IMG/VR virus record: IMGVR_UViG_3300049485_000101
Coordinates: 1-38,492 of that record
Source: a virus
Lineage: Duplodnaviria; Caudoviricetes
Reading direction: 5' to 3' (one strand)
Length of the DNA: 38,492 bases
Below are positions 4,091-38,061 of the stretch, in pieces (the stretch's first letter is position 1; every line of letters starts with the position of its first letter). A model generated the notes under the pieces. It made no database searches. It was given only the letters and a program-made list of their open reading frames with translations, and was not told where the DNA came from. The position numbers and the translations under genes are program-made.

Positions 4091-4091
4091 A

Positions 4092-5138
4092 ATGAGTTAT
4101 ACAAAAAATCCTAAAGACAAGTCAACTAAAAAAAATAAATTAGATTTTCTTGATAAAATTAAGTTTTTTTCAATACCACCAACGATATTTAAATATAAAT
4201 TAAATCCTACCGAAATTCTTTTTGTCAGTATTGTTTTTCATTTTAAGGACACAAATAACGGATGTTATTTATCAAACGAACAATTTTACACAATGATGGG
4301 TGTCTCTAAAAATACTTTTTTACGTACAAAAGTTAAAATTATTAGCAGTGGATTTGTAACTGTCAAAGAAAAATCCAAGGGTTTTTGGACTGAATGTTTA
4401 ACTTTATCCGATGATATGAGGGAATTATTTAACAGTCCCAAAATGGAACAAGGAATTTTAGAGAACAGTGCCAAATTGGCACCGTTTGAATATGAATACA
4501 GTCCCAAATTGGAACAGAACGGTGCCAAATTGGAACAGAACGGTGCCAAATTGGAACCTAATAACTGTATTAATAATAATAATAATAATAATGTGTGTGA
4601 TCCATATAGATCTAGCGCGCGTGCGCGCGAGGAAAACACACACACACAGAAAACAGTTGAAGACAAAATCCAAAAGGCAGTCTCCAAAGAGTTCATGGAC
4701 ACTGCAACACTAGTTGAAACCCTCAAGCCTCACATTGTCCATAATGATCAGAAAGTGAGTTTCGTTAGAAACGAATTGTTGGATCATATAAAAATGACTG
4801 GCGAAGATTTATTCCTCCTCGATTCGTATATGAGACAAAAACGATTAAACATAAATTATGCAAATATAGCCTCTAAAACGAAGATAGAATCAGTTTTGAA
4901 CGATTACTTAGATCAAGCTAAAAAAGTTCAATCACAGTCAAAAGAATCAAAATCCGAGGTATTTTCTAATGACTACTATAAAAAATCAGTAGAAAAATTG
5001 GCTTATATTGAGATTAATGGAGAGACATATCTTAAAAAAGACTTAGAAAGGTTGAAAGAAACAAACTTTGACAAGTACAAACAATTAATGGCCACAGGAG
5101 ATACTCCTATGAATGAACAAGTTTCAGTAGCCAATTAA
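4092..5138 (+). CDS. Replication initiator (N-terminal winged-HTH, lambda-O-like organisation)
   Basis: LNPTEILF..NGCYLSNEQFYTMMGVSKNT..L...GFV HTH pattern followed by an iteron-encoded repeat linker and poly-Asn. Confidence 0.8.
   Translation: MSYTKNPKDKSTKKNKLDFLDKIKFFSIPPTIFKYKLNPTEILFVSIVFHFKDTNNGCYLSNEQFYTMMGVSKNTFLRTKVKIISSGFVTVKEKSKGFWTECLTLSDDMRELFNSPKMEQGILENSAKLAPFEYEYSPKLEQNGAKLEQNGAKLEPNNCINNNNNNNVCDPYRSSARAREENTHTQKTVEDKIQKAVSKEFMDTATLVETLKPHIVHNDQKVSFVRNELLDHIKMTGEDLFLLDSYMRQKRLNINYANIASKTKIESVLNDYLDQAKKVQSQSKESKSEVFSNDYYKKSVEKLAYIEINGETYLKKDLERLKETNFDKYKQLMATGDTPMNEQVSVAN
4431..4592. repeat. Replication origin: five iterons plus AT-rich (AAT)n tract
   Basis: Copies of about AACRGTSCCAAAWTGGMAC start at 4431, 4464, 4497, 4518, 4539; followed by TAATAATAAT tract. 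Confidence 0.85.
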
Positions 5139-6115: not shown

Positions 6116-6319
6116 ATGTCAGAAGAAAAAATTTATACCGAACAAGAATTTAAAACAAAAATTCTTGAAAACAATCAGTCTCATTTGTTTAAATCAATTG
6201 ATAGACTTGATAATAGTATTAACTCTTTAAATAATAAAATTGATACTTTTAAATATTGGACTTTAGGATTAATTTTTGGATTGTATGGATTAATGATTAC
6301 TTATTTTGTGACAAAATGA
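6116..6319 (+). CDS. Small coiled-coil protein with C-terminal TM helix (possible holin or membrane protein)
   Basis: MSEEKIYTEQEF...IDRLDNSINSLNNKID..WTLGLIFGLYGLMITYFV; the 5975 start runs through the sRNA hairpins and is unlikely. Confidence 0.65.
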   Translation: MSEEKIYTEQEFKTKILENNQSHLFKSIDRLDNSINSLNNKIDTFKYWTLGLIFGLYGLMITYFVTK

Positions 6320-6745: not shown

Positions 6746-7041
6746 TTTATTGCCTCATTTCTACATGTGATTAAATAAACCAAAAAAGGTTTTGGTATCC
6801 CTAAAAGTTCCTCAGCTAGCTTGTCATTCTTGCTGTAGTACATAACTTTACACGTCGTGATCGTTTGCGATTCTTTGATCTGATCAATCACTGGCTCGAT
6901 TTTTTTTCCGACAAAGCAGGAATTGATAAAATCATTGATCGCTGTTTGAGCATTAATTGATAATACTTTTTCATGTCCTACTCTTATAGCCAAACGGCCA
7001 TCGAGCAATTCAGTACATTTGATCAAAAAACTATTTTCCAT
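6733..7041 (-). CDS. Hypothetical protein
   Basis: 102-aa ORF in the leftward early operon. Confidence 0.6.
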   Translation of the reverse strand: MENSFLIKCTELLDGRLAIRVGHEKVLSINAQTAINDFINSCFVGKKIEPVIDQIKESQTITTCKVMYYSKNDKLAEELLGIPKPFLVYLITCRNEAIKCQV

Positions 7042-7198
7042 CTTTTAAAATTCCGTCTTTTCGCAAACGATCAAAAAATTCTTCCCAATCTTTAGAAAGT
7101 TTTGGCTCATCCTTTTCTGGATCAGTTAAATTATCCCAATCCAGTACAAGATTACCTTCGCTATCTTCATTAAAAATGTTCGATTTTTTTTCGATCAA
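7031..7198 (-). CDS. Hypothetical acidic 55-aa protein (MIEKKSNIFNEDSEGNLVLDW...)
   Basis: TTG start overlapping the ATPase stop; fills the gap in the operon. Confidence 0.5.
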   Translation of the reverse strand: MIEKKSNIFNEDSEGNLVLDWDNLTDPEKDEPKLSKDWEEFFDRLRKDGILKDGK

Positions 7199-8064
7199 GC
7201 CGTCTTTTTCTCACGCTGTAAGTTTTGTTTGAAAACTTTATACTGCGAGAAATTGAGCTTGTCTAGTGAGCTGACCTTAAAATATTCCAACGCGCCTTTT
7301 AGTCGATCAGCATTCTCTGGCTTTGATTTTATGATCTCGTCGAGTTCATTTAAATGTTCCTCTGAAATTGGCAATTTTTCTTCGTCCACGATCAGTGTCG
7401 ATAGCCAATCCTTAATTTGTTCACCTGTTTGTGGAGTGATCTTAAAAATCTTGTCGACAAAAAGGCCAGTTCTGTCTTTTGAGACCATAGCTTCATGAGT
7501 CATTGCAACGTCAAAAACTGTTGTAAATTCGTATTCGAGCCCTTCGCGTTGTATGGGCGCAAGACCTACTTTTTTAGGCGTCATCTTGCCCCGATCATTA
7601 GCTTCCATCACATAATCTTGCTTGGATCGCATCGTGATGATTATGTGTATGTTTGACTGCAAAAATGCTGACTTTAGTATTTCGTGTTTTTTCGTGATAG
7701 ATGCCCAATTTGTATAGGAATTGCCACCCCTTCCGTCGAGTTTTTCTTTTTGTTCAAGCAATCCTCCTTCGCCAGCCCATGCGTGTGACAAGGAATCAAT
7801 GACTAAAACGTCATATCCAGCATCTTCTGCTGATTTAATCGCACTAATGTACTTTTCTGTCTCAAACGGTGGCTTTAACTCAAGTACGTCAAACTCAAAT
7901 TGATCTGCGTAAAGAGAAGCTGATCCATTCTCAGTGTCGATTACTGCGATCTTTTTTCCGAGACCAGACGCAAGCGAGAGTGATGAAAAAGTTTTTCCCG
8001 ATCCAGACGCGCCAGTGACCGCGATTTTTATCTTGATGGATTTTTTTTCAGCTTTTTTAAACAT
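7195..8064 (-). CDS. Sak4-like RecA-family ATPase (AAA_24 type)
   Basis: GASGSGKT, IDTENGS, VIDSLSHAW, REGLEYEF; lies between exonuclease and SSB. Confidence 0.88.
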   Translation of the reverse strand: MFKKAEKKSIKIKIAVTGASGSGKTFSSLSLASGLGKKIAVIDTENGSASLYADQFEFDVLELKPPFETEKYISAIKSAEDAGYDVLVIDSLSHAWAGEGGLLEQKEKLDGRGGNSYTNWASITKKHEILKSAFLQSNIHIIITMRSKQDYVMEANDRGKMTPKKVGLAPIQREGLEYEFTTVFDVAMTHEAMVSKDRTGLFVDKIFKITPQTGEQIKDWLSTLIVDEEKLPISEEHLNELDEIIKSKPENADRLKGALEYFKVSSLDKLNFSQYKVFKQNLQREKKTA

Positions 8065-8209
8065 TTTCAGCCCCCTCTTTTTTTTCTTCTAATTTTTTTA
8101 AACGGTCGCTTTCGATTTCCATATATTTTGAAAATTTTTCGTTTAGTTCTTGGAGGGCTTTTGAATAATTATTCAGATCTTCAAGAAATTTTTCTATATA
8201 TGTGTTCAT
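8057..8209 (-). CDS. Hypothetical 50-aa protein (MNTYIEKFLEDL...)
   Basis: AGGA RBS; fills the gap between exonuclease and ATPase. Confidence 0.55.
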   Translation of the reverse strand: MNTYIEKFLEDLNNYSKALQELNEKFSKYMEIESDRLKKLEEKKEGAENV

Positions 8210-8219
8210 TTTTTTATCC

Positions 8220-9059
8220 TTATTTTAGTAAAAAAGTTCTATTTCCCGATTTATTTGTTTTCCATGTGCAAAGCACTTTTTCCGACTCATCAATGATCGA
8301 TTCACAATCTTTCATGTACTCCATGATCTCGAACTTTGATTGTTCTTCGATCTCTTTTAATTCCTTTAGTTTACTTTTTACATCATTCATTTTAGACAAT
8401 TTTTCAAGTATTATTTCATTGACTTGTGCAGATTTTCCTTGTATATGTTTCGTGTATCTTAGTTTAAGATCGTCGATATTAATTAGCTTAATGTTGTCAG
8501 ATTCTTTGCTCTCAACAGCATCCCAAAACGAGCAAGCACTATCTAAAATTCTTGATTCAAGATCAAGATCGCGAGTGTATTTGTATTGCTTGTAAGTGTT
8601 GCCACCGATCAGTACTGCTATGTGAGCAGACGGCCAGTTTTTTATTGAGCAATACGTTGCGACTTGTATAATGTACTGGATCGGTACTTGTGCCGTGTCT
8701 TCCTCTCCCCATTCTTGCGACGCAAACGCCGAACAGGTTTTTGCTTCAAAAATTGACTTGTAATCATCAATTTCTCCATCAAAATGTCCCTGCACAAATT
8801 CAAAAAGAGGGTGAACATGTGTTTTGCATGTTTCGTAAACTGACACACTATTCCTGCGCTCAAATTCTGATCTAATTATGGGTTCCATAATATTACCCCA
8901 GTATTGATACTCATTTTCCTCTTGAGACTGTTCCAAAAGTCCAAGTTTTTGGAGATAAAGCTGGTATGGTGTCATAAATTTTGATAGACCCATGATGATC
9001 GGCATGTCTGATCCGCCGAGATATCCTTTTCGTTCATCTAGCTGTTGTTTTGTGATCAT
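8220..9059 (-). CDS. YqaJ-family (lambda-exonuclease-like) recombination nuclease
   Basis: R..YLGGSD..IMGLS.F.TPYQLY..K, WG..ME..I, FDG, FEAKT, VP..Y..QV. Confidence 0.93.
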   Translation of the reverse strand: MITKQQLDERKGYLGGSDMPIIMGLSKFMTPYQLYLQKLGLLEQSQEENEYQYWGNIMEPIIRSEFERRNSVSVYETCKTHVHPLFEFVQGHFDGEIDDYKSIFEAKTCSAFASQEWGEEDTAQVPIQYIIQVATYCSIKNWPSAHIAVLIGGNTYKQYKYTRDLDLESRILDSACSFWDAVESKESDNIKLINIDDLKLRYTKHIQGKSAQVNEIILEKLSKMNDVKSKLKELKEIEEQSKFEIMEYMKDCESIIDESEKVLCTWKTNKSGNRTFLLK

Positions 9060-9258
9060 AGTGATCTAGTCCTTTCCAAATATAAATAACCTCTACAAAA
9101 TTAAATTTTCTGATCTCAGCGGGCTTTTTATTGACGTTAAGCTGTTTCATGCGTCGGTAAATATTAGGTTTATCTTTACCAACGATTTTGGACATCTCGC
9201 CAAGTGTATACTCTCCAGCAGGGATCAATTTTAACCAATCCTTTGTCTCTTGTCTCAT
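9034..9258 (-). CDS. Small HTH DNA-binding protein
   Basis: AAAGGAC RBS before ATG 9258; YTLGEMSKIVGKDKPNIYRRMKQL HTH pattern. Confidence 0.6.
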   Translation of the reverse strand: MRQETKDWLKLIPAGEYTLGEMSKIVGKDKPNIYRRMKQLNVNKKPAEIRKFNFVEVIYIWKGLDHYDHKTTAR

Positions 9259-9282
9259 ATGATAGTCCTTTAAAAATATTTT

Positions 9283-9334
9283 TTTACATAACAAAATCAG
9301 AGTTTTTATTTACATAACAAAATCAGAGTTTTTA
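9283..9334. repeat. Perfect 26-bp tandem duplication
   Basis: TTTACATAACAAAATCAGAGTTTTTA at 9283-9308 and 9309-9334. Confidence 0.9.
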
Positions 9335-9786
9335 AAAAGTTCTTCAAAATTTTGCCAGTTTTCAAAACTGTCTGAAAATTCAAAATGCTGTCTAAAAATC
9401 ATGACGCAAATTTCCTCAATTCTGAAAATTCTTTCAATTTCTCCTTTTTCGTCGCAATCGTAAAAGCTCAAGTTTAAAAAAACATTATTATTTTTGTCTA
9501 CATCTAACCCTTTAAAAATATAGTCTGTAATACCTGCTGAAAAAAACAATCGATTGCATAAAAAATTTGGCAACGTGATATAAAATTCTATTTTTTGTTT
9601 GATTAGTTCTAATAACGTAATTTTTTTTCTGTAAGCTTTCATTTCTATTATATATCTTTCTTCGTCTCTGATTTTTTTTCCTCGATCTTGTAAAAAATCA
9701 CGGCAAAATTTAAAATCTGAAAATTCTTTGTAAATCTCTGAATTAAATGCAGATAAAATAGTTTCAACATATGTGTTAGTAGTCAT
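9310..9786 (-). CDS. Hypothetical early protein
   Basis: AAAGGA RBS, directly downstream of promoter at about 9861-9833. Confidence 0.7.
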   Translation of the reverse strand: MTTNTYVETILSAFNSEIYKEFSDFKFCRDFLQDRGKKIRDEERYIIEMKAYRKKITLLELIKQKIEFYITLPNFLCNRLFFSAGITDYIFKGLDVDKNNNVFLNLSFYDCDEKGEIERIFRIEEICVMIFRQHFEFSDSFENWQNFEELFKNSDFVM

Positions 9787-9819
9787 AAATTTTTCCTTTC
9801 AAGTTAGTGTGACCAAAAA

Positions 9820-9864
9820 TTGATCACACGTTAAGTTATACAATAGATTTTCTGTTGTCAATAA
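9820..9864 (-). promoter_or_regulatory. Sigma70-type early promoter with embedded operator-like palindrome, copy 1
   Basis: TTGACA-17-TAACTT; ACAACAGA-aaa-TCTATTGT overlaps -35 and spacer. Confidence 0.7.
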
Positions 9865-9869
9865 AAATC

Positions 9870-10382
9870 TCAAAAATTATTGTTAAATACAAAAAAATAT
9901 CCTTCGTTCCTAATAAAGTTCACATCTCCATTTAATTCGCAATCACGCGTAAAACTCTCATAGTCAAAATAATTCTTGAAAATTTCTGGTGTTGAACTAT
10001 CAAAAATTGTTTCCTCGACGTGTTGATAAGCCCATTCAAGCCTATTCTCAAAAGTTCCGAGATAATTCTCTAAAATCGTTTCGCATGATGTTTCATTGAA
10101 AGGATTTTCGTTCAAATACACATCAACCACGTGTTTTTCTGTCTCAGTTAAAGATAGATACTCATCAAAAACGGTCTCGTTTATACCGCATTCGGAGTAA
10201 AAACGTGCTGGAAACCCTTCATAATCTTGGAACATAAGTTCTGGATCGCGTTCGTCTTTGTGTAAGTCGAAACATGCACCCATGAAAGATTCTTTTGTAT
10301 GATTTTTTAGATTGATCCATGCACCCTTTAGGATACCATTGTTATATTTTTTGTATGTGCTAACGTAAACTTGCGCGTTCAT
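9870..10382 (-). CDS. ardA: Antirestriction protein ArdA (DNA mimic)
   Basis: VYVSTY.KYNNG.L.GAWI.L, PELMFQDYEGFP, ENYLG.F, YFDYESFTRD; acidic. Confidence 0.92.
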   Translation of the reverse strand: MNAQVYVSTYKKYNNGILKGAWINLKNHTKESFMGACFDLHKDERDPELMFQDYEGFPARFYSECGINETVFDEYLSLTETEKHVVDVYLNENPFNETSCETILENYLGTFENRLEWAYQHVEETIFDSSTPEIFKNYFDYESFTRDCELNGDVNFIRNEGYFFVFNNNF

Positions 10383-10399
10383 TTTTTTCGTGTCCTTTA

Positions 10400-10900
10400 T
10401 TAATTTAATTGATTTTCTAATATGTCTTTTGCGTACAATAAGATATTGTCAACGTTATCACGTTTTTTATTTCTAACTAATACTTTAACTAATGCGTCAA
10501 AAGTAATAACTTTTGAAACTACATCACAACTATCAACACCGTTAAAATTTTCAAAATTCACAAAAAAACATATGTCTACACTTTTTTCAGTATGCAAATC
10601 TCTGAAACTTGAAATTGTGACATATTTGTCTTCATTGTATGAATCGAAGATTACATCAAATCCGTTGATTTCCCAATTTTTAAAACGAAAATGAAACTTT
10701 TTTAAAAATATCAATAAAATTGAAAGTTTATCGGAAGTCATATTAAAAATATTTTTGTACAAATTCGATTTTTTTAGTTCACTCCAAGATTTATAACTAT
10801 CAGTTTTTATTTTTTCGTTAAGTTTTTCGATTTTTACATTAAGTTTTTCTATGCGAGATATTGCTTCTAAAAAATATGTCTTCGTATAAGTATCGTTCAT
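10400..10900 (-). CDS. Hypothetical early protein
   Basis: AAAGGACAC RBS; 166 aa. Confidence 0.7.
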   Translation of the reverse strand: MNDTYTKTYFLEAISRIEKLNVKIEKLNEKIKTDSYKSWSELKKSNLYKNIFNMTSDKLSILLIFLKKFHFRFKNWEINGFDVIFDSYNEDKYVTISSFRDLHTEKSVDICFFVNFENFNGVDSCDVVSKVITFDALVKVLVRNKKRDNVDNILLYAKDILENQLN

Positions 10901-10927
10901 TTGTTTTGTGTCCTTTATTTGTTAAAA

Positions 10928-11167
10928 TTAATTCCAATAGCCAGTTTCAATAAAATTTTTCATTTCTTGGATTGTTGTATCGTCTGTAAATACAAGTTCC
11001 TCTAGCGCGTAACGTGGAAGATCTGACTGATCAATTTTTTGGGCATAAAAAGAATAAGGATGAAAATCATTGGAATTTTTGTAATCCAAGTACATCTCTA
11101 AAATTTCTGGATCAGTTGTATAAGCATACTGTGTAACTGCGATCGAGCTGTGTATTGCGTAAAACAT
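10928..11167 (-). CDS. Hypothetical early protein
   Basis: AAAGGA RBS before ATG 11167 (MFYAIHSS); first gene after the promoter. Confidence 0.65.
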   Translation of the reverse strand: MFYAIHSSIAVTQYAYTTDPEILEMYLDYKNSNDFHPYSFYAQKIDQSDLPRYALEELVFTDDTTIQEMKNFIETGYWN

Positions 11168-11226
11168 CTTTTTCGTTTCCTTTCTCGCCCATTTTTGAGC
11201 TTGTGTTTGTTTGTGACTGACTATCA

Positions 11227-11268
11227 ATCACATCACTAACTTATACAACAGTTTTACTATTGTCAATA
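11227..11268 (-). promoter_or_regulatory. Sigma70-type early promoter with embedded operator-like palindrome, copy 2
   Basis: TTGACA-17-TAAGTT; ACAATAGT-aaa-ACTGTTGT; closely similar to copy 1. Confidence 0.7.
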
Positions 11269-11413
11269 TATATTTTTATTTATTTTAAAAAAATAGTTAT
11301 GTATGATAAATATAGATAACTTTTATTTAATGAAAAATATTTAAAAATAATTTTAAAAAATATTTGCATTTCATAAATCCCATCCTCAAAAGACCTTATT
11401 TTTATCCCAAATT

Positions 11414-11442
11414 TTGCATTTAATTACAGACTTATGTATAAT
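11414..11442 (+). promoter_or_regulatory. Sigma70-type promoter
   Basis: TTGCAT-17-TATAAT. Confidence 0.65.
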
Positions 11443-11487
11443 AATCAAAGAGAAAATATAATTTTATGTCAATTGAGGTTAAAAAAA

Positions 11488-11715
11488 ATGTCAAACAAAT
11501 CAAGGTATTGGCTTGATCTGATCTACAAAATATTTATCGCAATTTTTGGAATACTTTTAGGCACTCATGCTTACAAAGACAAAGTCGATCATGACGCAAT
11601 GATCGAAGCGATCTACGGCTTGCAAATTGAGTCAACAGAGTTAAGAAAAGAATTGTTAGAAAGCGGTGTCACATATCAACAATCGGCAAGTTTTGAGGAT
11701 TCAACTAATGCTTAA
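11488..11715 (+). CDS. Small single-TM membrane protein
   Basis: GAGGT RBS; LIYKIFIAIFGILLG TM helix; overlaps the protease start. Confidence 0.7.
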   Translation: MSNKSRYWLDLIYKIFIAIFGILLGTHAYKDKVDHDAMIEAIYGLQIESTELRKELLESGVTYQQSASFEDSTNA

Positions 11716-12601
11716 AATACTTATATTTCTTGGATTTTCAATGTTTTTTGCATCATGTAATTATGATGCAAGTTCGTCAACATTAGTAAAATTAACTGAC
11801 GATAAAAAGATATCATTGATAAAATTTCCAAATGCTCAAAATATTGAAATAAAGCATAAATTCGAGTTTTTAGAAGATGATTACTCAAACGGCATACACT
11901 CTTTTACTAGAGACCTTGGTATGCAAAGTGTTCCTGTACTTGATCAAGGATCAAAAGGTACTTGTGTAACATTTGCGTCAACAGCGGCGCTTGATGCTTT
12001 AATAGCAAAGTCTGACTTTGTGAGCCAGCAATGCTCACTCGAGCTTGATAAGTATCTAGGGCAGGACTACTGGAACGGTGCATACTATCCGTCGCAAATA
12101 GTTGATCCAATAAAAAAATACGGCGTGGTTGCTCACGCAAAATGCCCGCACCAATATCCATCTTCACTCTATAAAATGGCTCCAACAAAATACACTGCGC
12201 TTGCAGACAAGGATAAGTCTGTAAAGGTTAAAGATGTGCAAATTTTATATTCAGTTGATCCTACGGTTGGGGACGTGCGCGCGGCAATTAATAGAGGACA
12301 CCGCGTTTTGTTTGGCTTTGTGATTGATAGCTCGCAGTCAGTCGCGATCCGTGGCTTCGATCTAACAGTTGATGGCAAAGCATACAAAGGTGGCCTCTGG
12401 GCTTGCAAACAAGGCGATATTGATGTCTGCAAACGCTATGACGCAGGACATGAAGTTTTAATTGTTGGCTATGATGATGATCAACAATTGTTAAAAATAA
12501 GGAACAGTTGGGGCGTGTCAGTAGGGGAGAATGGCGACTATTATATGTCATATAAATTCTTTGAGGATCGTAGCTTGGACATGACTGAAATATGGCTGTA
12601 A
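11708..12601 (+). CDS. Lipoprotein, papain-like (C1) cysteine peptidase
   Basis: GAGGA RBS; MLKILIFLGFSMFFAS-C lipobox-like; VLDQGSKGTCVTFA (Gln, Cys), AGHEVLIVGYDD (His), IRNSWG (Asn). Confidence 0.92.
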   Translation: MLKILIFLGFSMFFASCNYDASSSTLVKLTDDKKISLIKFPNAQNIEIKHKFEFLEDDYSNGIHSFTRDLGMQSVPVLDQGSKGTCVTFASTAALDALIAKSDFVSQQCSLELDKYLGQDYWNGAYYPSQIVDPIKKYGVVAHAKCPHQYPSSLYKMAPTKYTALADKDKSVKVKDVQILYSVDPTVGDVRAAINRGHRVLFGFVIDSSQSVAIRGFDLTVDGKAYKGGLWACKQGDIDVCKRYDAGHEVLIVGYDDDQQLLKIRNSWGVSVGENGDYYMSYKFFEDRSLDMTEIWL

Positions 12602-12843
12602 TATGCAATATTTGCCTTGATCGAAAGAAAGTATACAAATTTCTTTCTGGCTACTCATTAGTCGATAACGGCGGGTGGGGAAAGATAGATTGTCCAAATT
12701 GTACTGTAAACAAATCTGAAATTAAAGAGGGTGTCATGGATGACATTCCTAAAATTAAGATTGAACAAATTAAACAAAAGGATGTCATGGATGACAAGCG
12801 GAAAAGTTCACGAGCCAAACGACAAAATAAGGCAAACCGTTAG
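12592..12843 (+). CDS. Small zinc-finger protein
   Basis: CNIC...GGWGKIDCPNC with basic tail. Confidence 0.6.
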   Translation: MAVICNICLDRKKVYKFLSGYSLVDNGGWGKIDCPNCTVNKSEIKEGVMDDIPKIKIEQIKQKDVMDDKRKSSRAKRQNKANR

Positions 12844-13156
12844 AGACCTTAAGGCTTTTGGTATCACACAAGATCAGATTTCTAAGTATCTTAAAATCGG
12901 GAGAGACACGCTAACAAGGCACTATGAGCATGAGCTTGAGACTGGCAAAATACATGCTATATATAAAGTGGCTGGTGCGTTGTATCATTCAGCAGTTGTA
13001 AAAGGTAATGTTTCAGCTCAAATATTCTTCTTGAAAACTCAAGGCGGTTGGCGCACGGCTGATGGTCTCGACAATTCGATCCAAAACGCCGAGATTCTCG
13101 AAAAGATAAATCAAGTCAGCAAAGCACTCGAAGAAAAATACAAACGCGATTATTGA
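12791..13156 (+). CDS. terS: Putative terminase small subunit (HTH)
   Basis: GITQDQISKYLKIGRDTL.RHY..EL..GK, VAGALY..A..GNVSAQIFFLKTQGGWR, a typical TerS pattern. Confidence 0.8.
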   Translation: MTSGKVHEPNDKIRQTVRDLKAFGITQDQISKYLKIGRDTLTRHYEHELETGKIHAIYKVAGALYHSAVVKGNVSAQIFFLKTQGGWRTADGLDNSIQNAEILEKINQVSKALEEKYKRDY

Positions 13157-13207
13157 TAAATCTTTTACAATTACTTTTCTTTTAAGACTTGTCAACAGAT
13201 TTATATC

Positions 13208-13235
13208 ACTTCCTATAACCTAGATTATGTTGAAT
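13208..13235 (+). other. dif-like XerC/XerD recombination site (candidate attP or dimer-resolution site)
   Basis: ACTTCCTATAA-CCTAGA-TTATGTTGAAT, 11-6-11; right arm 10/11 to E. coli XerD arm TTATGTTAAAT; left arm 10/11 to B. subtilis dif left arm ACTTCCTAGAA; intergenic. Confidence 0.8.
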
Positions 13236-13271
13236 AAATTGAATTGAATGAAAATTGATTTAAATCAAGAA

Positions 13272-13377
13272 ATAAAAAACCCACCGAGAACCCCCAATGG
13301 GTTTAAAATGGAGGCCGAAACTCCACTTGCAATCCTCTGCGAGTATGTACAGAGGATATCCACTATACTCTAGGCAA
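13272..13377 (-). ncRNA. Putative small RNA B2 (three hairpins, last a terminator)
   Basis: TGTGT-TACAAT extended -10 (13393-13383); stems ATCCTCTGT/GCAGAGGAT, AGTGGAG/CTCCATT, AAACCCATTGGG/CTCGGTGGGTTT with minus-strand G-U pairs; T-run. Confidence 0.65.
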
Positions 13378-13402
13378 TTTATATTGTAACACAAACATGT
13401 AA

Positions 13403-13464
13403 AATAAAAAACGCGCCTATCTGACTAAGCGCGTCTTCCAACCTTTTAGGATTTCACATGGAGA
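13403..13464 (-). ncRNA. Putative small RNA B1 (anti-RBS 5' seed plus terminator)
   Basis: TGTGT-TATAAT extended -10 (13480-13470); CUCCAUGUGAAAUCCU then GACGCGCTTA/TAGGCGCGTT stem plus T-run. Confidence 0.6.
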
Positions 13465-13487
13465 CTTTTATTATAACACAATTTTTA

Positions 13488-13557
13488 GGACACACAAGAT
13501 CGCGATCTGTGTGTCTTTTTTATGGGGGACACGAAAACGGTTTCCATGTCCCCCATG
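13488..13557 (+). terminator. Two strong hairpins (first followed by a T-run)
   Basis: GGACACAC-aagatcgcgatct-GTGTGTCT-TTTTT; ATGGGGGACA...TGTCCCCCAT. Confidence 0.55.
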
Positions 13558-13560
13558 ACA

Positions 13561-13604
13561 AGTTACTTTCAATTACTCTCAATTACTTTCAATTACTCTC
13601 AATT
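13561..13604. repeat. 10-bp tandem repeat x4 (AATTACTYTC)
   Basis: agttactttc aattactctc aattactttc aattactctc aatt. Confidence 0.85.
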
Positions 13605-13637
13605 TTTATTATGATCATTTTTTTATGAGGTATTAAA

Positions 13638-13949
13638 ATGGATTTAGAAGAATTTTATAATAAATGTAGATATGATTTAAATAACTCTGCTACTTTGGAT
13701 GAGATTAAAACAATAAAATCTATACATGATATGGCTCGCGCATATTCAAATGGTTATTTTACATTGCTTGGATACGGTGATCATTACCGATTTTATTTGG
13801 GAACAACAAGCCAACTTTTGGATTCATCTTCACCTTCATTTTTTTCAGATTTTATGGGTGAAGGTAGTAGTATCGAATATGCTGTACTAGATTACATTAA
13901 AAAATGTGGCAAGAAACATACTTGCCCTTCTTGCAAACATAGATTTTAA
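13638..13949 (+). CDS. Hypothetical protein (paralogue of next)
   Basis: GAGG RBS; YRFYLG, GSSIEYAV, C-terminal Cys cluster. Confidence 0.75.
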   Translation: MDLEEFYNKCRYDLNNSATLDEIKTIKSIHDMARAYSNGYFTLLGYGDHYRFYLGTTSQLLDSSSPSFFSDFMGEGSSIEYAVLDYIKKCGKKHTCPSCKHRF

Positions 13950-13960
13950 ATGGAGAAAAA

Positions 13961-14440
13961 ATGTTACCGATAATAAAAGATTACTTAGAATTATCAGACA
14001 TAAATAGAAGATCAGTAGATCAGTTGTTAGAAACAAATAGAACAGCTTTGTTTGATATGTTAGCAGAACTCGCATTAAATCATACATCTAATTGCGAATA
14101 TACAATTTTTTATGATGGACGTGGTTACAGATTTTGTTTTGGTTTTCCAGATAAAAAGAATGATATATACTGTGTTGATACTGGCAATACTGTGCAAGAA
14201 GCTGTTGATTTTTATTTTAGACGTTTTATTGAATCAAAAAACAAATTATTTCAGGTTGTAAGCAATAATGAAATAGAACCATTACAAGAAAAAGAAGAAG
14301 AATTAAAACTAGAACTAAAAAAAATCCAAGAATTGAAAGAAACAGTAGCAGTTGGGATGGAGATGCAAGATGCAATATTCTGCAAAAAATGCGGACATAC
14401 TCATTCTAAAAAAAAATTATCATGTACTCATAATCCATAA
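13961..14440 (+). CDS. Hypothetical protein (paralogue of previous)
   Basis: GGAG RBS; YRFCFG, GNTVQEAV, CKKCGH. Confidence 0.75.
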   Translation: MLPIIKDYLELSDINRRSVDQLLETNRTALFDMLAELALNHTSNCEYTIFYDGRGYRFCFGFPDKKNDIYCVDTGNTVQEAVDFYFRRFIESKNKLFQVVSNNEIEPLQEKEEELKLELKKIQELKETVAVGMEMQDAIFCKKCGHTHSKKKLSCTHNP

Positions 14441-14539
14441 AATCTCAACCAATATCAGTTAACCTTAACTTAATCTTAAAAAATCACATGACAATTATAT
14501 AAACAAATGTATAAATAAATTTATTTGAATGAGGTGATT

Positions 14540-14956
14540 ATGATTGATATATCCAGTATTGTGTTCCAAGGTAAGCGAAAATTTCATGGAAGTTTTGGTC
14601 GGAAAAAGGGAAATGAAATCCATTTTAGACTTAAAAATGCAAAGCGTGGCGGAAATTGTTTTGATCTTAAATTATATATTGGTAGTGACATTGCCAAGAA
14701 AATATCCCTTCGAGATGGTGACAATCTAATCGTATCCCTTGATCACAATTACTGGTATTTGAAGGTCGATAGTTCTGGGTACAAAGCTAGATATGAAAAA
14801 AAGAGAGGATTGTTTACTGTTCAATTTCCTTTCTCATTTTCAGGAAACCCAACGGATGGATCAGTTTTAATCTCTCCTTTCCATGTTGAAACCGATTCAG
14901 ATCAAAGAGTCCTTGCCATGAACGTCAGTTCATACCTTAAAAGCAACATTAACTGA
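14540..14956 (+). CDS. Basic protein, possible AbrB-like fold (paralogue 1)
   Basis: GAGGTG RBS; LYIGSDIAKKISLRDGDNLIV. Confidence 0.7.
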   Translation: MIDISSIVFQGKRKFHGSFGRKKGNEIHFRLKNAKRGGNCFDLKLYIGSDIAKKISLRDGDNLIVSLDHNYWYLKVDSSGYKARYEKKRGLFTVQFPFSFSGNPTDGSVLISPFHVETDSDQRVLAMNVSSYLKSNIN

Positions 14957-15041
14957 AAAAACCGCGTGACAATTATATAAATCTCGTATAAAAAAGAATT
15001 AATATTCAACGCAAATAGTTTTATTAAAGAGGGATTTTTAT

Positions 15042-15470
15042 ATGATTGATCTGTCAAACGTGGTTTTCAACGGTCGCATTAGATATTACAATGGTGTTCT
15101 ACGTGGAAAAAAACTCAGTAATCAAGTAAATTTTCGAGTCAAGAAACCAAAAGACAAATCAAAATTTTTTGAACTTGTTTTGTACATTGGTGATGAGTAC
15201 GCGAAAAAAATGGGTCTGCAAGAAGGTGATCGTATGTCAACAAATTTCGACAATAATAATTGTTGGTATTTTAAAGTCGATGATGGTGGTTACAGGGTGG
15301 CGAAAGATAAAAATAGAAATTTATTTTACATATATTTGCCATACAAGACTAATGCTAACATAACTGAATTTATTACAGTCGCTCCATTTCACATAGAAAC
15401 ATGTCCAAATCAGAAAGTTATGGCTATCCATGCCACTCCATACCTAAAAACACCAACAAATCCAAAATAA
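15042..15470 (+). CDS. Basic protein, possible AbrB-like fold (paralogue 2)
   Basis: LYIGDEYAKKMGLQEGDRM; collinear with previous ORF over full length. Confidence 0.7.
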   Translation: MIDLSNVVFNGRIRYYNGVLRGKKLSNQVNFRVKKPKDKSKFFELVLYIGDEYAKKMGLQEGDRMSTNFDNNNCWYFKVDDGGYRVAKDKNRNLFYIYLPYKTNANITEFITVAPFHIETCPNQKVMAIHATPYLKTPTNPK

Positions 15471-15556
15471 AGCCCAAAACAGCCTCGTGGTTGAATTTAA
15501 ACACTTTTTTGATATGAACATATTAAACGGTTTATTTTAAATCGTTGTAGAGGCTG
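15464..15556. repeat. Imperfect inverted-repeat element, copy 2
   Basis: AAACAGCCTCGTGGTTGAATTTAAA...TTTAAATCGTTGTAGAGGCTG. Confidence 0.6.
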
Positions 15557-15592
15557 AAAATACACATTATTAAATTGTGTTGACAAGGTTTA

Positions 15593-18526
15593 TTATTTTT
15601 GTTTGTCTGATCTATTCGGAACTGTTCCAGCCCTCAAAACAGCTTGTCCAATGGCACTTTTCAAATAGTATTGTTCTTGAGTACTTAATTTAATTTTTGG
15701 ATTTTTGATTTTATCAATCACTGTATTTCTAAAAGTTTCTTCTGTCATGAGTTGATTAAATTTTCTCGATCCTAAAAATGTAGCAACAGTTTTAATTGGG
15801 TTAGTCTTTAAGGCCGCAATGAACATCATCATTCCAAGACTGTGCCCCGTTTTAGGCATAAACATAACATCAAGGGCGTGACTGTTCATCTGCCTCAGTT
15901 TTGAATAATCTAATAAAGATTTACGAACCTCTGGATCGGGAAATGTTTCCTCAAATTGTTTCTTGCCCATATTATCTATGAGTTGAGCAAGTTTTTTTGG
16001 ATCAACAATACCATCCTTATCAACAGAACCTCTTAAATAAGCATAACCAACAAGATTTTTTTGATCTTCTGGTAGCATACTAACAACACGTCTAACTTTT
16101 GAGGATGAGTCAGTTGTTTTGTTTGGGCTAATGATTTTTCTCGCTAATGCGTCTGCACTTTCACTTGGATCAGTGGCAATCTTATAGATAGGATCATTCT
16201 TCATAGCCTCATATTGTTTAGCATAATTAATTAATGATTGCCTCAATTGTGGATCACGAACAAGATTTTCAAATTGCCTTGTTCCAAGATTATTAACCAA
16301 TCGTGCTAATTCTGACGGTATGAGTTCTCCATTTTTATCAAAAGCATTTCTAAAATATCTATACGATAAAATGCTTTGTTTTTCTTTTGGTAAAAGGTCT
16401 TGGATTTTTTTAATATTTTTATACTGATCGAGAGATTTACTAGGTTTAATAATATCATTAACAATTTTCTCAGGATTTTCTTGAATTAATTTTTTATTGA
16501 TTTCTTTATCTAAGAAAGGAACATAATTTTCTCTATAATTTTTATTTGCACTTTCATGTAACTTTTGCAGTTCGGGAGAACCTTTTTTTACACTTCTATT
16601 AATATCAGTTTTGAGTGCCTTTGATACTTTTTCAAGATTGTTTGCAACCATTTGATCGATAGGATTAACAGATCTTTTTATTTTTTGGGATTTCTCATAC
16701 AGATCACTTGCAAAAATTTGAGCCTCAGAAAGTGTTGGAGTAGCACCTTTAAAAGAATAAACTCTTTTTCCTTTTTCATAGCGATCCCCTGCTTTTTCTG
16801 CTTCTAATGGTTCAGAAATTGGAGGTTTTTCTGCTTCTTTTGTAAACACATCAGTTGGGGTAAAGCCTTCTTCTGGCAATCGTGTGCCTTGTTTTTCAAG
16901 TGCAGAAGATTGAAACGATTGTTTCGGTTTAAAACTCACAATACCATTTGGTTGAAACATAAAAGATTCAGGAACACCACTTAATTTTCGAGTTCCTTCT
17001 AATTCTGGATGATCTGTTATGTATGATTCTGCATCTATAGTGCGTTCATCACGAATAGGGATTTCAGTATCGACGGGAGTTTTTTCTTTTTGAAAGACGT
17101 CTGTGCCAACACGTTTTTCTTTTAAACCTTCTCCAAAAGTCATGAATTTATTCATTTGACTTCTGAAACGTGGATCGTATTTATATAATGCGGAATCTTT
17201 AATAGATTTAGATATTCTCTTTACTTCTTTTCTGAATGAAGGAACACGCAATGAAAGATTTTCTTGTTCAGCTAATTTGTTTCGTTCAGAATAAATCTCA
17301 TTTTTAATATCTTTTTGAATAGATTTTGCTTCTTTCAATAAAGAATGGGTAATTTCATCTAGATCGCCACCATCTTTGATTTCTTTTGGCTTCAACGATT
17401 CAACAATTTCAGTACCTTCTGTTTTAAAAGGATCGCCTTTAGATTGAATGCTGAATTTTAGTGCGTCATTAGCACTCACATAATCTTCTACACCTTGAGG
17501 GGCAACTGATTCTAAAACTTGTCCAGATCTTTGCTCGACTTGTTTGCCAGCCTCTTGCAAGCCTTCATATCCACGACTGAAAGGCGTTCGACTTGAAACA
17601 TTTTGATAAAAATCAACAAGTGAAGGATTAACTACAATATTACCAAGTTGGGTATTTGTTCCTTCTGCGGCACGTTGATTGGCTTCAATTTCTTCAATTG
17701 GTACATTTTTTGCTTTCTTGGCAATGTAACTAGCTAACAAATCTTCGGCAGTTTTTACAGGGTGTAAAGCAGCCTTTCCTACTTTTGGAGCAACTTCTAC
17801 GGTTTTACCAATAATCTTTGGCGCACCAAATCCAAGCGCACCATGAATCGGGTCTGCGCCTTGACCAATGTTAAAGAGTGCGCCTTTAAATAAAGAGTCC
17901 AATAATCTTTTTTCGGGAAACATGGCATAAGATCCAATTTTGCCAAGCCCTTGAATTGCTTGATCACCAATTTCATCACGTCCAATGTAGCTTTTTGGAG
18001 ACATAGAAAGTGCTTCTTGTTCAAGTCCTGTTAAACCGAGTGGAACCTTTAATTTTGCAATGTTACCAAAAAGAGTTTCGTCAGGCGTCTCTCCAAATCC
18101 TTTGGCCATCTCAGGATTAATGCCTTTTTGAGACAATCCTAATCCCTTTTTATTCAAATAATCGGCCATCTCAGGAATAGTATTCCACATTCCTAGCATA
18201 CCTTTATTAGTGGCAATTGCTAGGTTTGTAGCGAGTCTTTGAGGATTTAAAAGTTGACCTGATCCTTCTGCGAGTGCAGGGATCGTTTCCGTGGCAATTT
18301 CTTTTCCAAATTTAGGAATACCACCAATACTTTTAAGAACATCAGAGAAAACACCTTGCCAACCTTGTGGTTTTTTTTCTTGTGGTTGTTTCTGTTGATC
18401 AGACTTTGAAATATTAAAATAATTTATAGCAGCCTTTGCAATTTGTTCGTCTGTCCAATCTTCTGGAACATCAAATTCTTCTGTTCTGCCGTCTGGAAGC
18501 TCTACTTCGCGCGTTATTTCTCTCAT
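15593..18526 (-). CDS. Large internal virion / DNA ejection protein (P22 gp16 position)
   Basis: 977 aa; N-terminal VELPDGR..EFDVP motif; third of three genes after the gp10-like hub; internal repeats. Confidence 0.7.
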   Translation of the reverse strand: MREITREVELPDGRTEEFDVPEDWTDEQIAKAAINYFNISKSDQQKQPQEKKPQGWQGVFSDVLKSIGGIPKFGKEIATETIPALAEGSGQLLNPQRLATNLAIATNKGMLGMWNTIPEMADYLNKKGLGLSQKGINPEMAKGFGETPDETLFGNIAKLKVPLGLTGLEQEALSMSPKSYIGRDEIGDQAIQGLGKIGSYAMFPEKRLLDSLFKGALFNIGQGADPIHGALGFGAPKIIGKTVEVAPKVGKAALHPVKTAEDLLASYIAKKAKNVPIEEIEANQRAAEGTNTQLGNIVVNPSLVDFYQNVSSRTPFSRGYEGLQEAGKQVEQRSGQVLESVAPQGVEDYVSANDALKFSIQSKGDPFKTEGTEIVESLKPKEIKDGGDLDEITHSLLKEAKSIQKDIKNEIYSERNKLAEQENLSLRVPSFRKEVKRISKSIKDSALYKYDPRFRSQMNKFMTFGEGLKEKRVGTDVFQKEKTPVDTEIPIRDERTIDAESYITDHPELEGTRKLSGVPESFMFQPNGIVSFKPKQSFQSSALEKQGTRLPEEGFTPTDVFTKEAEKPPISEPLEAEKAGDRYEKGKRVYSFKGATPTLSEAQIFASDLYEKSQKIKRSVNPIDQMVANNLEKVSKALKTDINRSVKKGSPELQKLHESANKNYRENYVPFLDKEINKKLIQENPEKIVNDIIKPSKSLDQYKNIKKIQDLLPKEKQSILSYRYFRNAFDKNGELIPSELARLVNNLGTRQFENLVRDPQLRQSLINYAKQYEAMKNDPIYKIATDPSESADALARKIISPNKTTDSSSKVRRVVSMLPEDQKNLVGYAYLRGSVDKDGIVDPKKLAQLIDNMGKKQFEETFPDPEVRKSLLDYSKLRQMNSHALDVMFMPKTGHSLGMMMFIAALKTNPIKTVATFLGSRKFNQLMTEETFRNTVIDKIKNPKIKLSTQEQYYLKSAIGQAVLRAGTVPNRSDKQK

Positions 18527-19617
18527 AAAAAATCTTTCAACTTAATTTTAGGCTTTTTATTGGAACCAGATTCACCAAGTGCCTCTTTTTTTATTTGAGA
18601 AGGGCTTTGAAAATAAGTGGATGTTTCTTTTCTTAAAATATCAACGATTGAATTGTAGTTTGATAAAGCCAAATCAGGATTACTAATCCAACCAGACGGG
18701 TCTGTTAATTTTTCTAACTTTTCCCTCATAGAGGGTTGAATGGATTCTCCATAGAACTGTCTAACTTGAGTGGCAAACATATGAGCCTTATTAAACATAT
18801 TAGACCATGAATCATATTCGGAAGATTCCTGTCCAAAAGGTGCTTTAACTTGTTCCCAGTATCTTTTCAATCCATTCGCACCAGAATATTGTGTCAAAAT
18901 CTTTGGATCGATTGAATTGATAGTTTTTTCAATATTTGCAGCATATCTACGTCGTTGGATTATTTGTGTCTGTTCAGATTCTTTCTCAAGTTTTGCTTCA
19001 TATTGAGATCGCAATTCATTCTGTTTATCTTCGGAGATTAGTTGTTTTTTTCCAGTACCAGGCATGAAACCAGAATTAATGTCATCAAGGTCTGTATTGA
19101 GTTTGGTCATAGTGGGAGAAATGGCATACTGTCTGGTATCGGCATAAATTTTTCTTTGATTTTGTATGCTTTGTTTATTTGCAATATTTGTTTCAAAAGA
19201 TCGACGTAAATCTTTAGCAAAATTCCTAGCAATAGGATCAGTACTCTGTTCAGCCTCATAAATTGACTGCAATACACCTGCATCACCAGGCGCAATGTGT
19301 TGCAAAAATCCAAGTGGAGAATTTTGTAATCTTTTATTTGTCTCAATTTTCTGCAAATAATCTTGAGTTTGTGCTTGTTTTAAACCACTTTCAATTGGAA
19401 GTAATTCCTTCATACGTTCCATTTGAGATTCTTTTGATTTAATTTCCATTTGCTTGAAGGCATTGGCGATCTTCGCTGTCTCAGATTCCTGTGCAAATTT
19501 CTCAGGCATTTTGTACAGACTATATGCTTGAGCCATTTTTTGGCCTAAGTCATCTGGGAAAACCTTAGTTGGTTCAAGTATTTGTGCGTTTAAAAAGTTA
19601 ATCGGTTGAAATGGCAT
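18523..19617 (-). CDS. DNA ejection protein (P22 gp20 position)
   Basis: 364 aa, Gln-rich helical; synteny. Confidence 0.6.
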   Translation of the reverse strand: MPFQPINFLNAQILEPTKVFPDDLGQKMAQAYSLYKMPEKFAQESETAKIANAFKQMEIKSKESQMERMKELLPIESGLKQAQTQDYLQKIETNKRLQNSPLGFLQHIAPGDAGVLQSIYEAEQSTDPIARNFAKDLRRSFETNIANKQSIQNQRKIYADTRQYAISPTMTKLNTDLDDINSGFMPGTGKKQLISEDKQNELRSQYEAKLEKESEQTQIIQRRRYAANIEKTINSIDPKILTQYSGANGLKRYWEQVKAPFGQESSEYDSWSNMFNKAHMFATQVRQFYGESIQPSMREKLEKLTDPSGWISNPDLALSNYNSIVDILRKETSTYFQSPSQIKKEALGESGSNKKPKIKLKDFL

Positions 19618-19629
19618 AATTTAAAATCC

Positions 19630-35943: not shown

Positions 35944-38061
35944 TCATTTCGTTATGTTCTCTAATTTCTTGTTTATATGTTCGCCAATCTTAACGGCGGA
36001 GTCAACAGCGCTGCGCTCGTTTTCACTGACTATTTTTGCAGCCTTTAATTCCTGTTCAATGCCTACATTTTGAATGTTGGCTAGGGTATCAATGCGCTTT
36101 GTTTCCGCCTCCATAGCTTTAATTGACACGTTTGCAGCATCATTCTTTGCCTTGGCTTGTACAAGCATTGCGCCAACCTCGCCTTCTGTCGGGCTTTGAA
36201 TTTGTTTTTGCAGTGCGGCCATACTCATAGCCTGCTCTTGTGCTTGTTGTTGCAATTGTTGTTGTTGTGCCTGCATTGCTTGTTGTTGTTGAGCCTTTTG
36301 ACGTTCCATCCAAAAATTTGCTTTCTCTTTGAGCTGATCAATGCCACGAATATCAAGATTATCAAGTATAACAGGCAAGCCTTCTTCATTAAAGAACTGG
36401 CCAAATCCTTGGTTTGCTTGGCTCATGGCTATCACCGTTTGCAATGATATCTCCTTTTGCATCGAGAAGTTCACACCAGCCTCGACCTTAACTTGCAAGT
36501 GATTGGGATCGTAGTTCATGTATAATGATCCCTTTTTATTGATCTCGTAATAACTGCGTTTTCCGTCAGGAAGTAAAATTGGAAGTGATCTAGGTGTGCG
36601 GTAGTATTTTGGAATTAAATCAACAATAATTTCTGCAACCCTATTCAGACCTTTTATATAACCGATCACGTATGGCATGCTTGCATTGTTACTTTGAATT
36701 GCAGATCGTGCAAAAGAAACGCCCGACATATCCGCCCTATTTAATCCTGCTGCGGCATCATAGTTTCCAAGAATAGTTTGCATTTGCTGATCAGTTGACG
36801 AAAAAGTGTTTGGAATTTCGCCAGGTATTGGTGCGCGTTGTACTTCTCTTGGTGCTTGCAACTGGACATTTGGGTCATTATTTAGAAATTGATTAAATAC
36901 AAGTGTATCAGCCTTCTGAACATTCTGGTATGCCTCTTGGTAATCCTCAGGAATGGCTTCAATCGGAACAATGAACTTGTGTTGAATTGTATTTTCAATT
37001 TCGTTGGCAAGAGATTGTCCCGCCACATTTTTCAGACGTTGCAATCCCTCCCCATGATACACGTACGGCCTCGTCATTTGAGTGTACGAACCACCGTCCT
37101 TTAGAAAGACGCTGTTACCATCAACAAACACAAGCGGGAGATGGTTATAATCAGTCTCGATGTAATCAAGAACCCTGTTTTCACATACTCTATATCGGCA
37201 AATTGTTTGAAGGTTGGTTATGCGTTCAGAAACAATGACAGGAACCTGTTCAATGAAATTTGTTTGTTTCCATTCTTCGACAAATTTCTCATAGTGTTTT
37301 TTGACAATGACTTGGCCTGTCGAGAGTTTGCAGATTTTCTCGCGCTTCTTTTTCTTTTCGTAGTAATCGCAAACAAGGACAATTTTTTCATTGTCATTTT
37401 GGTAGCTCCAATCGAATCCAGAGAGGCTTCGAGTGAATTTCATTTCCCTCGCGGCTTCTGCTCCAAATTCTTCCTCGAACTTGTCTTTTGACATTGGATA
37501 TAGTTCGGCACAGAATTTACCGTCACCTTTGTGGCTTTTACGTGCCAAGGGGTCAAATATCGTCAAGGTTGGATCAAAACAACGCTCCACATATATATTC
37601 TGTTCCATTGACATGCTGTTCACATAGTCAGTAAAAACACGCATGACGCTGAATCCGCCAGCCAACAGATCGGAATAAATATTGTAGTCAAGCATGTCGT
37701 TTGAGCCTTCCGAGAAGACACACCGCAAATGGGCTTCGATGACATCGAGTGTTTCGCTGAAATTCCGATCCAACATGTTGACTGGAAGGCCGTCTGCGGC
37801 GCGAACTGTTAGGGCAGGCTCTTGTTTGGCAAATTCCCCACGCAACCTTGATATGATTGATTCAAGGATGTTAAATTCAATTGAGGGGCGTCCGTTATCT
37901 GCTAACGTCGCGGCCTCATCATCAGTGATGGAGCTTTTAAAGACAAAACGCATGAACTTGTTGTATCGTTCGACGTTTTGACAAAAGTATTGACGCGCGT
38001 CGTCTACAGACTTTTTGATTTCATCAAGACGTTCTGCATATTTTTTAGCTAATTCTTCCAT
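35944..38061 (-). CDS. Portal protein (P22 gp1-like, with C-terminal barrel)
   Basis: 705 aa; RP.IEFN.L, FDPLAR..DG..C, SGV, I.DLIPKYY..PR, Gln-rich C-terminal coiled coil. Confidence 0.92.
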   Translation of the reverse strand: MEELAKKYAERLDEIKKSVDDARQYFCQNVERYNKFMRFVFKSSITDDEAATLADNGRPSIEFNILESIISRLRGEFAKQEPALTVRAADGLPVNMLDRNFSETLDVIEAHLRCVFSEGSNDMLDYNIYSDLLAGGFSVMRVFTDYVNSMSMEQNIYVERCFDPTLTIFDPLARKSHKGDGKFCAELYPMSKDKFEEEFGAEAAREMKFTRSLSGFDWSYQNDNEKIVLVCDYYEKKKKREKICKLSTGQVIVKKHYEKFVEEWKQTNFIEQVPVIVSERITNLQTICRYRVCENRVLDYIETDYNHLPLVFVDGNSVFLKDGGSYTQMTRPYVYHGEGLQRLKNVAGQSLANEIENTIQHKFIVPIEAIPEDYQEAYQNVQKADTLVFNQFLNNDPNVQLQAPREVQRAPIPGEIPNTFSSTDQQMQTILGNYDAAAGLNRADMSGVSFARSAIQSNNASMPYVIGYIKGLNRVAEIIVDLIPKYYRTPRSLPILLPDGKRSYYEINKKGSLYMNYDPNHLQVKVEAGVNFSMQKEISLQTVIAMSQANQGFGQFFNEEGLPVILDNLDIRGIDQLKEKANFWMERQKAQQQQAMQAQQQQLQQQAQEQAMSMAALQKQIQSPTEGEVGAMLVQAKAKNDAANVSIKAMEAETKRIDTLANIQNVGIEQELKAAKIVSENERSAVDSAVKIGEHINKKLENITK

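Follow-up and report, generated by a model that had tools for sequence, protein, structure and literature searches.

The site and its genomic setting

The window, i.e., the whole stretch of DNA analysed here, is a viral genome of 38,492 nucleotides. The genome is circular-complete (38 kb, with a terminal repeat of 127 bases) and carries P22/Sf6-like portal, capsid, scaffold, head-closure and ejection genes. The genome also has an O-like initiator gene containing iteron-like repeats, a pair of exonuclease and annealase genes, and genes for SSB, ArdA and Acb2/Tad1. The 28-mer ACTTCCTATAA-CCTAGA-TTATGTTGAAT, an 11-6-11 site, is located on the plus strand at 13208-13235, 51 bases after the terS stop (13156). 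It occurs once in the genome and is intergenic (intergenic share of the genome, 8.2%), as had been stated in the original prediction. The features of the locus and the main genes are the following.

12731..13156, plus strand: small terminase gene terS (phrog_309, E=2e-14; P0121; database call from ATG giving 121 aa)
13208..13235, plus strand: XerCD-type dif mimic, 11-6-11 (sequence; 24.1 bits, 0/1500 simulations)
13208..13218, plus strand: predicted XerC-binding arm ACTTCCTATAA, equal to the Staphylococcus/Listeria dif left arm in the excerpted Kono 2011 supplement
13219..13224, plus strand: central spacer CCTAGA (spacer comparison)
13225..13235, plus strand: predicted XerD-binding arm TTATGTTGAAT, equal to the Chlamydia dif right arm in seven rows of the excerpted Kono table
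13277..13304, minus strand: terminator-like hairpin, in the first of two minus-strand hairpin units by the site (hairpin folding)
13405..13440, minus strand: second terminator-like hairpin (hairpin folding)
4092..5138, plus strand: lambda O-like replication initiator (phrog_678, E=5e-5)
7195..9059, minus strand: YqaJ/RecE-like exonuclease and Sak4-like annealase (PHROGs, Pfam)
35944..38061, minus strand: P22-like portal, family-defining (PF16510; Sf6 gp3 structure 7sfs, E=1.5e-16)

No recombinase or ParA/B was found among 63 ORFs searched with PHROGs and Pfam or among 25 ORFs searched with NCBIfam. Six-frame searches with PF00589, PF00239, PF07508 and a XerL-like protein were also blank, which leaves room for a remote homologue below profile sensitivity. 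With the terminal repeat, these searches bear out the claim of an apparently complete P22-like genome, a P22/Sf6-like podophage, that lacks a recombinase. No recognised repressor was detected in the window with PHROGs or Pfam. Other genes encode an ArdA anti-restriction protein (9870-10382), a papain-like C1 peptidase with Legionellales relatives (11666-12601) and an Acb2/Tad1 anti-defence protein (26990-27244). The iteron-like repeats (repeat family D2) lie inside the initiator gene at 4429-4558, 8.7 kb from the site, and are the likely origin of the circle on which the site would act. The exonuclease and annealase are homologous-recombination genes and would generate multimers.

The window was the only one of 30 family genomes compared that had its late genes in inverted blocks; late genes were collinear in every relative where they were detected. 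The blocks were assigned as terL+, lysin-, portal+, capsid block-, tail block-, head-closure block+ and terS-, and each inverted block needs its own promoter. According to the gene order, rearrangement has parted terS from terL. The site is located at this terS/terL breakpoint, and four ORFs without a homologue in the relatives come next. One rearrangement breakpoint was spanned by a Logan contig. The region 13150-15600 had no DNA similarity to relatives, and its source was not identified. The downstream ORF at 15042-15470 had no sequence homologue, and its Atlas structural matches were all under 0.9. Two paralogous ORFs occupy 14525-15470, with a weak AbrB-like structural lead.

Two units lie on the minus strand of 13262-13470. 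By eye, both have a -10-like motif with a TG extension, and both contain a terminator hairpin (z -2.8 in one and -3.1 in the other); GGA motifs are present in the longer unit. A strong double hairpin (z -5.3) with a 10-bp tandem repeat follows at 13490-13602. These units and the double hairpin are candidate small RNAs. An Rfam search of the hairpin region gave nothing at gathering score, and no RNA datasets holding this DNA were listed.

The dif-profile scan and chance estimate proposed in the original prediction were carried out with a generic dif weight matrix, which was built from an IUPAC consensus and not trained on the window. The site scored 24.1 bits, and the next best place in the genome scored 9.8 bits. 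That score was reached by none of 1500 order-3 Markov genomes (top simulated score, 22.0), a per-genome p-value that overstates the significance because the site was chosen among about 250,000 scanned windows. A pattern fitted to the site had matches in 0/100 dinucleotide shuffles. In the per-genome simulation, the site exceeds the chance expectation for this genome.

The inner ATAA/TTAT dyad is present in the 11-6-11 layout, and both arms match chromosomal dif arms. Judged by the excerpted Kono 2011 table, the left arm is that of Bacillales chromosomes (Staphylococcus/Listeria), and the right arm is that of Chlamydia (seven rows). The left arm is also identical to arms in six viral records. 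The spacer CCTAGA differs, as had been noted, from the E. coli spacer TGTATA; it has three mismatches to TGTATA, TATATA and TTTATA, and the XerD-side TAGA is common with the spacers GATAGA and TGTAGA. The spacer begins with T in all 80 listed chromosomal dif sites and with CC in none of them. CC following ATAA was seen in only one entry of the excerpted Kono dif table, and XerD-side TAGA was seen in several. Compared with chromosomal XerCD dif of Bacillales, Chlamydia and Gammaproteobacteria, each arm of the window equals a tabulated arm, but the arm pair together with the CCTAGA spacer was in no chromosome, tabulated or searched.

The surroundings of the site were also inspected. An ARG-box-like match is located at 13245, on the XerD side (14 such matches in the genome). 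No cer-like accessory arrangement was identified, and there is only one KOPS motif. A Logan contig of 37,856 bases, possibly from the source sample itself, covers 12000-14600 without a joint or variant; it comes from the one run in which this DNA was found, and contigs lose rare variants.

dif mimics, resolvases and prophages in the phage family

The portal had at least 2008 relatives, the best with 70% identity. The portal alignment gave matches at 212 viral loci, 80 of them retained, and at 12 loci of bacterial genomes, including Legionella maceachernii and Ca. Aquirickettsiella (48-49%). Thirty near-complete records were compared. Twenty-nine are family members, and one (G030), with only terS in common, was left out of the family counts.

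The site was sought in related phages, as the original prediction had suggested, and was not found there; absence from relatives is one of the outcomes that the prediction itself had counted against its reading. A XerCD-type site scored above 15 bits in 0/40 related genomes (best, 15.0), none of the 30 near-complete records exceeded its own null on the dif matrix, and the stretches downstream of terS homologues in relatives had no XerCD site. In the relative with the most genes in common (G022), a look-alike, ATTACCAATAA-CCTGTA-TTATGTTGATT, is located between terS and terL. Its 12.8 bits were reached by 446/1500 simulations and are thus inside the null; it is oriented opposite to terS and overlaps small ORF ends. 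The right arm TTATGTTGAAT was found in 120 viral loci (40 of them with short flanks only), G022 being the only family member. Nine loci found through the Sak4-like protein yielded no closer relatives and no sites.

A different type of dif site is present in the family. Legionellales have a single-recombinase XerL/difL system, discovered via the phage LME-1 (excerpts of Nicholson 2022, PMC9765430), and difL was present in 106/131 Legionellales examined. Canonical difL was found in 4/29 relatives (G008, G019, G021 and, twice, G004), and the variant GGTGATTA-N6-TAATCACC was found in 5/29. Thus, 9/29 relatives carry a dif mimic of XerL type, mostly right after the last late gene. The variant also occurs in 3/301 Gammaproteobacteria, in one of which (G191) it is 2.3 kb from a XerL homologue. 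The exact difL core was detected in 65 viral loci (L462-L526), 26 of which match family structural genes, some distantly. In the window, the symmetric difL arms GTCTGATTA-N6-TAATCAGAC had no match at three mismatches, and a host-trained difL matrix reached at best 5.4 bits, elsewhere than 13208-13235.

Other 11-6-11 near-palindromes were observed after the last late gene or in common between sister genomes: TTATAA-N6-TTATAATACTA in G017/G018, others in G001 and G003, and a perfect 11-6-11 palindrome in G023. These could be further dif types.

A serine resolvase of 190-225 aa without a dif mimic was found in 6/29 relatives. Five of the six carriers form one clade, nested among the difL carriers, and the late/early junction that holds the gene is the same in all five. 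The exclusion between dif sites and resolvases is weak (hypergeometric P of about 0.08, with five of six carriers in one clade), and both integrated prophages described below carry a dif site and a resolvase together. The slot of the window site, immediately after terS, is taken by the resolvase in three genomes (G029, the L. maceachernii prophage and G045:C4). G045:C4 contains a family genome whose break lies inside portal; the junctions lack dif, and it was treated as a possible chimera. ParA and a small partner lie beside the resolvase in G006 and G024 (L191:5462-7458), and a RelE-like ORF (by eye) lies beside it in G023; the cassettes of these three genomes resemble plasmid-prophage maintenance. 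The relative from an Aquirickettsiella bin has a tyrosine integrase. The family alternatives are therefore a difL mimic, the difL variant, a serine resolvase with or without ParA, and a tyrosine integrase. In 14/29 relatives the dif mimic, resolvase and integrase are all absent, so the function is dispensable.

Two full-length integrated relatives were found at difL, with 47-50% portal identity to the window. The L. maceachernii prophage (40.9 kb) lies between difL-derived attL/attR at 48219-89174 of G041:C27 (L326-L328), the two sites being placed at 48219 and 89147. It encodes a second XerL-like recombinase, 57% identical to the other copy, and has a resolvase between terL and terS. The second prophage (35.6 kb) lies between difL-derived attL/attR at 1738541-1774201 of G534:C1 (L594-L597), with the sites placed at 1738543 and 1774174, and is split in its replication operon, between an HTH-type replication ORF and the lambda-P gene. 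The XerL-like protein query had no match in this prophage. The dif-flanked related prophages anticipated in the original prediction thus exist, but at difL and of XerL rather than XerCD type.

A tree was built on portal, terL and capsid from 34 genomes, 9 of 43 genomes without one of the markers being left out. The window was placed on a long branch between the variant clade and the clade containing the difL carriers, and the five resolvase carriers were nested among the difL carriers (FastTree supports of 0.91, 0.95 and 1.0). An interim IQ-TREE topology, without support values, gave the same placement of the window. The window site is a singleton and the least supported member of the family dif pattern.

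Integrase-less phages are routinely called strictly lytic, and this family shows that a 28-base mimic of a host site can replace a recombinase gene. The original prediction held that few such cases are described in tailed phages, which is fair, except that LME-1 is published and experimentally tested (Nicholson 2022, PMC9765430; Nicholson 2025, PMC12407071; both as excerpted); its att sequence is given in the excerpted part of Rao 2016. Integration of a tailed phage at dif is therefore not new; a single phage family that swaps dif types and resolvases is. In the literature covered, mainly open access, dif mimics used as resolution sites were found neither for tailed phages nor for this phage family. 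Like the window, LME-1 is a dsDNA phage with a host dif mimic and a short tail (shown in Nicholson 2025), and the relatives of the window carry its difL motif. Unlike the window, with its XerCD-type site and divergent spacer, LME-1 depends on one recombinase, XerL, and its 22-bp att is identical to that of the host. LME-1 is also T7-like, whereas the portal, capsid and head-closure proteins of the window matched Sf6 chains only or nothing (the presence of LME-1 chains in the PDB set was unconfirmed). The LME-1 strategy is not confined to a single phage, then, but is shared by a broad family of Legionellales phages that the virion protein search did not relate to LME-1; this provides a handle for host prediction.

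Two classes of dif site

Among the first-listed Legionellales difL sites, 27/30 had one of five spacers (TTTTGA in 19 of these); this five-spacer host set was defined from the same Legionellales loci. The phage difL-type sites had 24 distinct spacers in 31 sites, 19 of which were at most one base from a Legionellales spacer, compared with 7.6% at random. Twenty whole records contained 22 difL-type sites. All 18 of the intergenic ones were one to two bases off the host set. Those inside ORFs were host-identical in 3/4 cases, including both prophage junctions and the second site of G004, in a replication gene. G004 holds both kinds (at 993 and 27225): one host-identical inside the replication gene and one divergent after the last late gene. 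"Non-host" was judged against the sampled Legionellales, and the true hosts of the free phages may be unsampled and match.

When recombination takes place between copies of a phage's own genome, the spacer is automatically identical. We infer that the host-identical sites in the replication module are att sites and that the intergenic sites with non-host spacers serve to recombine one copy of the phage genome with another. Spacer identity and position together may therefore separate integration sites from self-resolution sites. The window site, which is intergenic with intact arms and a divergent spacer, resembles the free-standing class.

On a broader scale, the family may swap its DNA-resolution module, using a difL mimic, the variant, a serine resolvase with ParA, an integrase or, after a host jump, a XerCD mimic. 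It would then have two functional dif classes: att sites with the host spacer, at which integration splits the replication operon, and sites with a diverged spacer, which serve the phage's own multimers. This scheme is put forward as a possibility, with less confidence than the self-resolution reading of the window site set out below. If it is true, the type of site would name the Xer system of the host.

Function of the site and the host

Of the two uses named in the original prediction, integration and dimer resolution, resolution is tentatively favoured here, and use of the site as a dif is plausible in view of difL in the family. The site would be a working XerC/XerD dif mimic for self-resolution of phage multimers. 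With its arms both intact, the site would be bound by host XerC and XerD. Where the circular phage genome had formed a dimer or multimer, these enzymes would recombine two copies of the site in direct repeat and so restore monomers. A spacer that starts with CC is predicted to keep the phage from entering the host chromosome by the usual XerC-first route, and XerD-first entry would be possible where the host dif spacer is GATAGA or TGTAGA. This reading is favoured because the site is free-standing, has intact arms and a CC spacer, and lies in the post-terS slot that is held by a resolvase in three relatives. It presupposes a persistent circular state and a switch of the lineage from a XerL host to a XerCD host. 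Arguing against it are the absence of a XerCD site in the 40 relatives, the lack of ParA and of a recognised repressor, the single KOPS and the lack of a cer-like arrangement.

The proposed role is like that of ColE1 cer, pSC101 psi and P1 loxP/Cre, which monomerise a circular replicon, cer and psi via the host XerCD; multimer resolution by ColE1 cer/XerCD and P1 Cre/loxP is described in the excerpt of PMC2409434. Unlike these systems, the window has no identified ArgR/PepA arrangement, no ParA/B and no phage recombinase.

Alternatively, the site is an attP, and the phage integrates through XerCD at a host chromosomal dif whose spacer matches at least on the XerD side. This XerCD counterpart of LME-1 is unlikely. 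Two family prophages do lie between difL-derived sites, LME-1 integrates at difL through XerL (Nicholson 2022, PMC9765430, as excerpted), and chromosomal dif spacers ending in TAGA exist in the Kono table. Spacer mismatches are also tolerated at the att sites of VGJ and gokushoviruses, and gokushovirus dif motifs with variable spacers integrate (excerpt of PMC7062461). However, the family integration sites have host-identical spacers within the replication module, and the window site has neither, which makes integration less likely. The Logan contig had no joint at the site (a single run, and contigs lose rare variants), no exact arm match was found in metagenome contigs, arms at two or fewer mismatches with a matching spacer were in none of 401 Gammaproteobacteria, and the window has no recognised repressor.

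The comparison with IMEX phages (CTXphi, VGJphi, TLCphi and enterogokushoviruses) bears on the same point. Like the window, they have no integrase and an 11-6-11 dif-like site with a non-canonical spacer. They are ssDNA or satellite phages with demonstrated integration, whereas the window is a tailed phage genome for which no integrated form was found. In CTX and VGJ, XerC acts first during integration and homology is kept at the XerC side (PMC5357621 and PMC9226527, as excerpted), where the window spacer is most unusual. The XerC-first route is therefore predicted to be closed to a spacer that starts with CC. The arms of the window are both intact, unlike those of the TLC/GGI att sites.

A coincidental match, lying in AT-rich intergenic DNA and picked from a very large scan, is improbable. 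The site is not conserved in 40 related genomes, the right arm plus ATAA recurs as a coding artefact in a conserved Legionellales ORF, a looser pattern occurs in about 150 viral stretches that are nearly all unrelated, and 20 bits were reached by 14/1500 simulations. Against this, no simulation reached 24.1 bits, each arm is identical to one present in chromosomal dif sites, the site is intergenic, and dif mimics of another type are present in 9/29 relatives. Pseudoalteromonas phage J2-1 (120 kb; NC_047839.1, about 56692-56719; L230:5001-5028) also has the same two arms, with the spacer GATATA, where no genes are annotated.

Slightly less probable still is the capture of a genuine dif that now lies idle and that arrived with foreign DNA, from a plasmid dif module or a host terminus, during the rearrangements that scrambled the genome. 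The scrambled late-gene order, seen in the window alone among 30 family genomes, and the position at the terS/terL breakpoint ahead of four ORFs without a homologue in relatives are consistent with such a capture. There is, however, no second good site to close a module (next best, 9.8 bits), 13150-15600 has neither DNA similarity to relatives nor an identified source, and the arms are undecayed.

In P1, pac lies within the terS gene, and circularisation is Cre-mediated. In a P1-like circularisation of the window, pac would lie in terS, the first headful would carry the site at both of its terminally redundant ends, and XerCD would close the incoming linear DNA. This would fit the post-terS position shared with resolvase genes in three relatives, but is very improbable, as most family difL sites are at least 12-13 kb from terS and the phage has its own exonuclease/annealase pair.

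The prophage relatives, difL in the near relatives and the C1 peptidase gene, which has weak DNA similarity to many Legionellales genomes, all point to Legionellales-like bacteria. The excerpt of Carnoy and Roten (2009) reports no XerCD dif in Legionellales, which are reported to have XerL instead. There is thus a real tension between these host clues and a XerCD-type site, and a functional XerCD site needs a jump of the lineage to another host. No XerCD-using host lineage was identified among 401 Gammaproteobacteria, metagenome contigs and tabulated dif sites. A perfect spacer-length match of window positions 1-19900 was found in none of 198 scored Legionellales genomes (two candidates scored in each).

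Two candidate host signals were rejected. Dif-like matches in Legionellales that share the right arm (in 22 and 32 of 101 genomes) were considered as host dif, but are mostly inside a conserved ORF next to queA. The nearest chromosomal match (G312) was discarded as a host clue; its order has canonical dif in 79/99 genomes. In many of the Legionellales genomes (G472-G737), further difL-like sites were found, as many as 11 in one genome; their spacers vary, some of the sites are clustered, and they are possible dif modules of mobile DNA.
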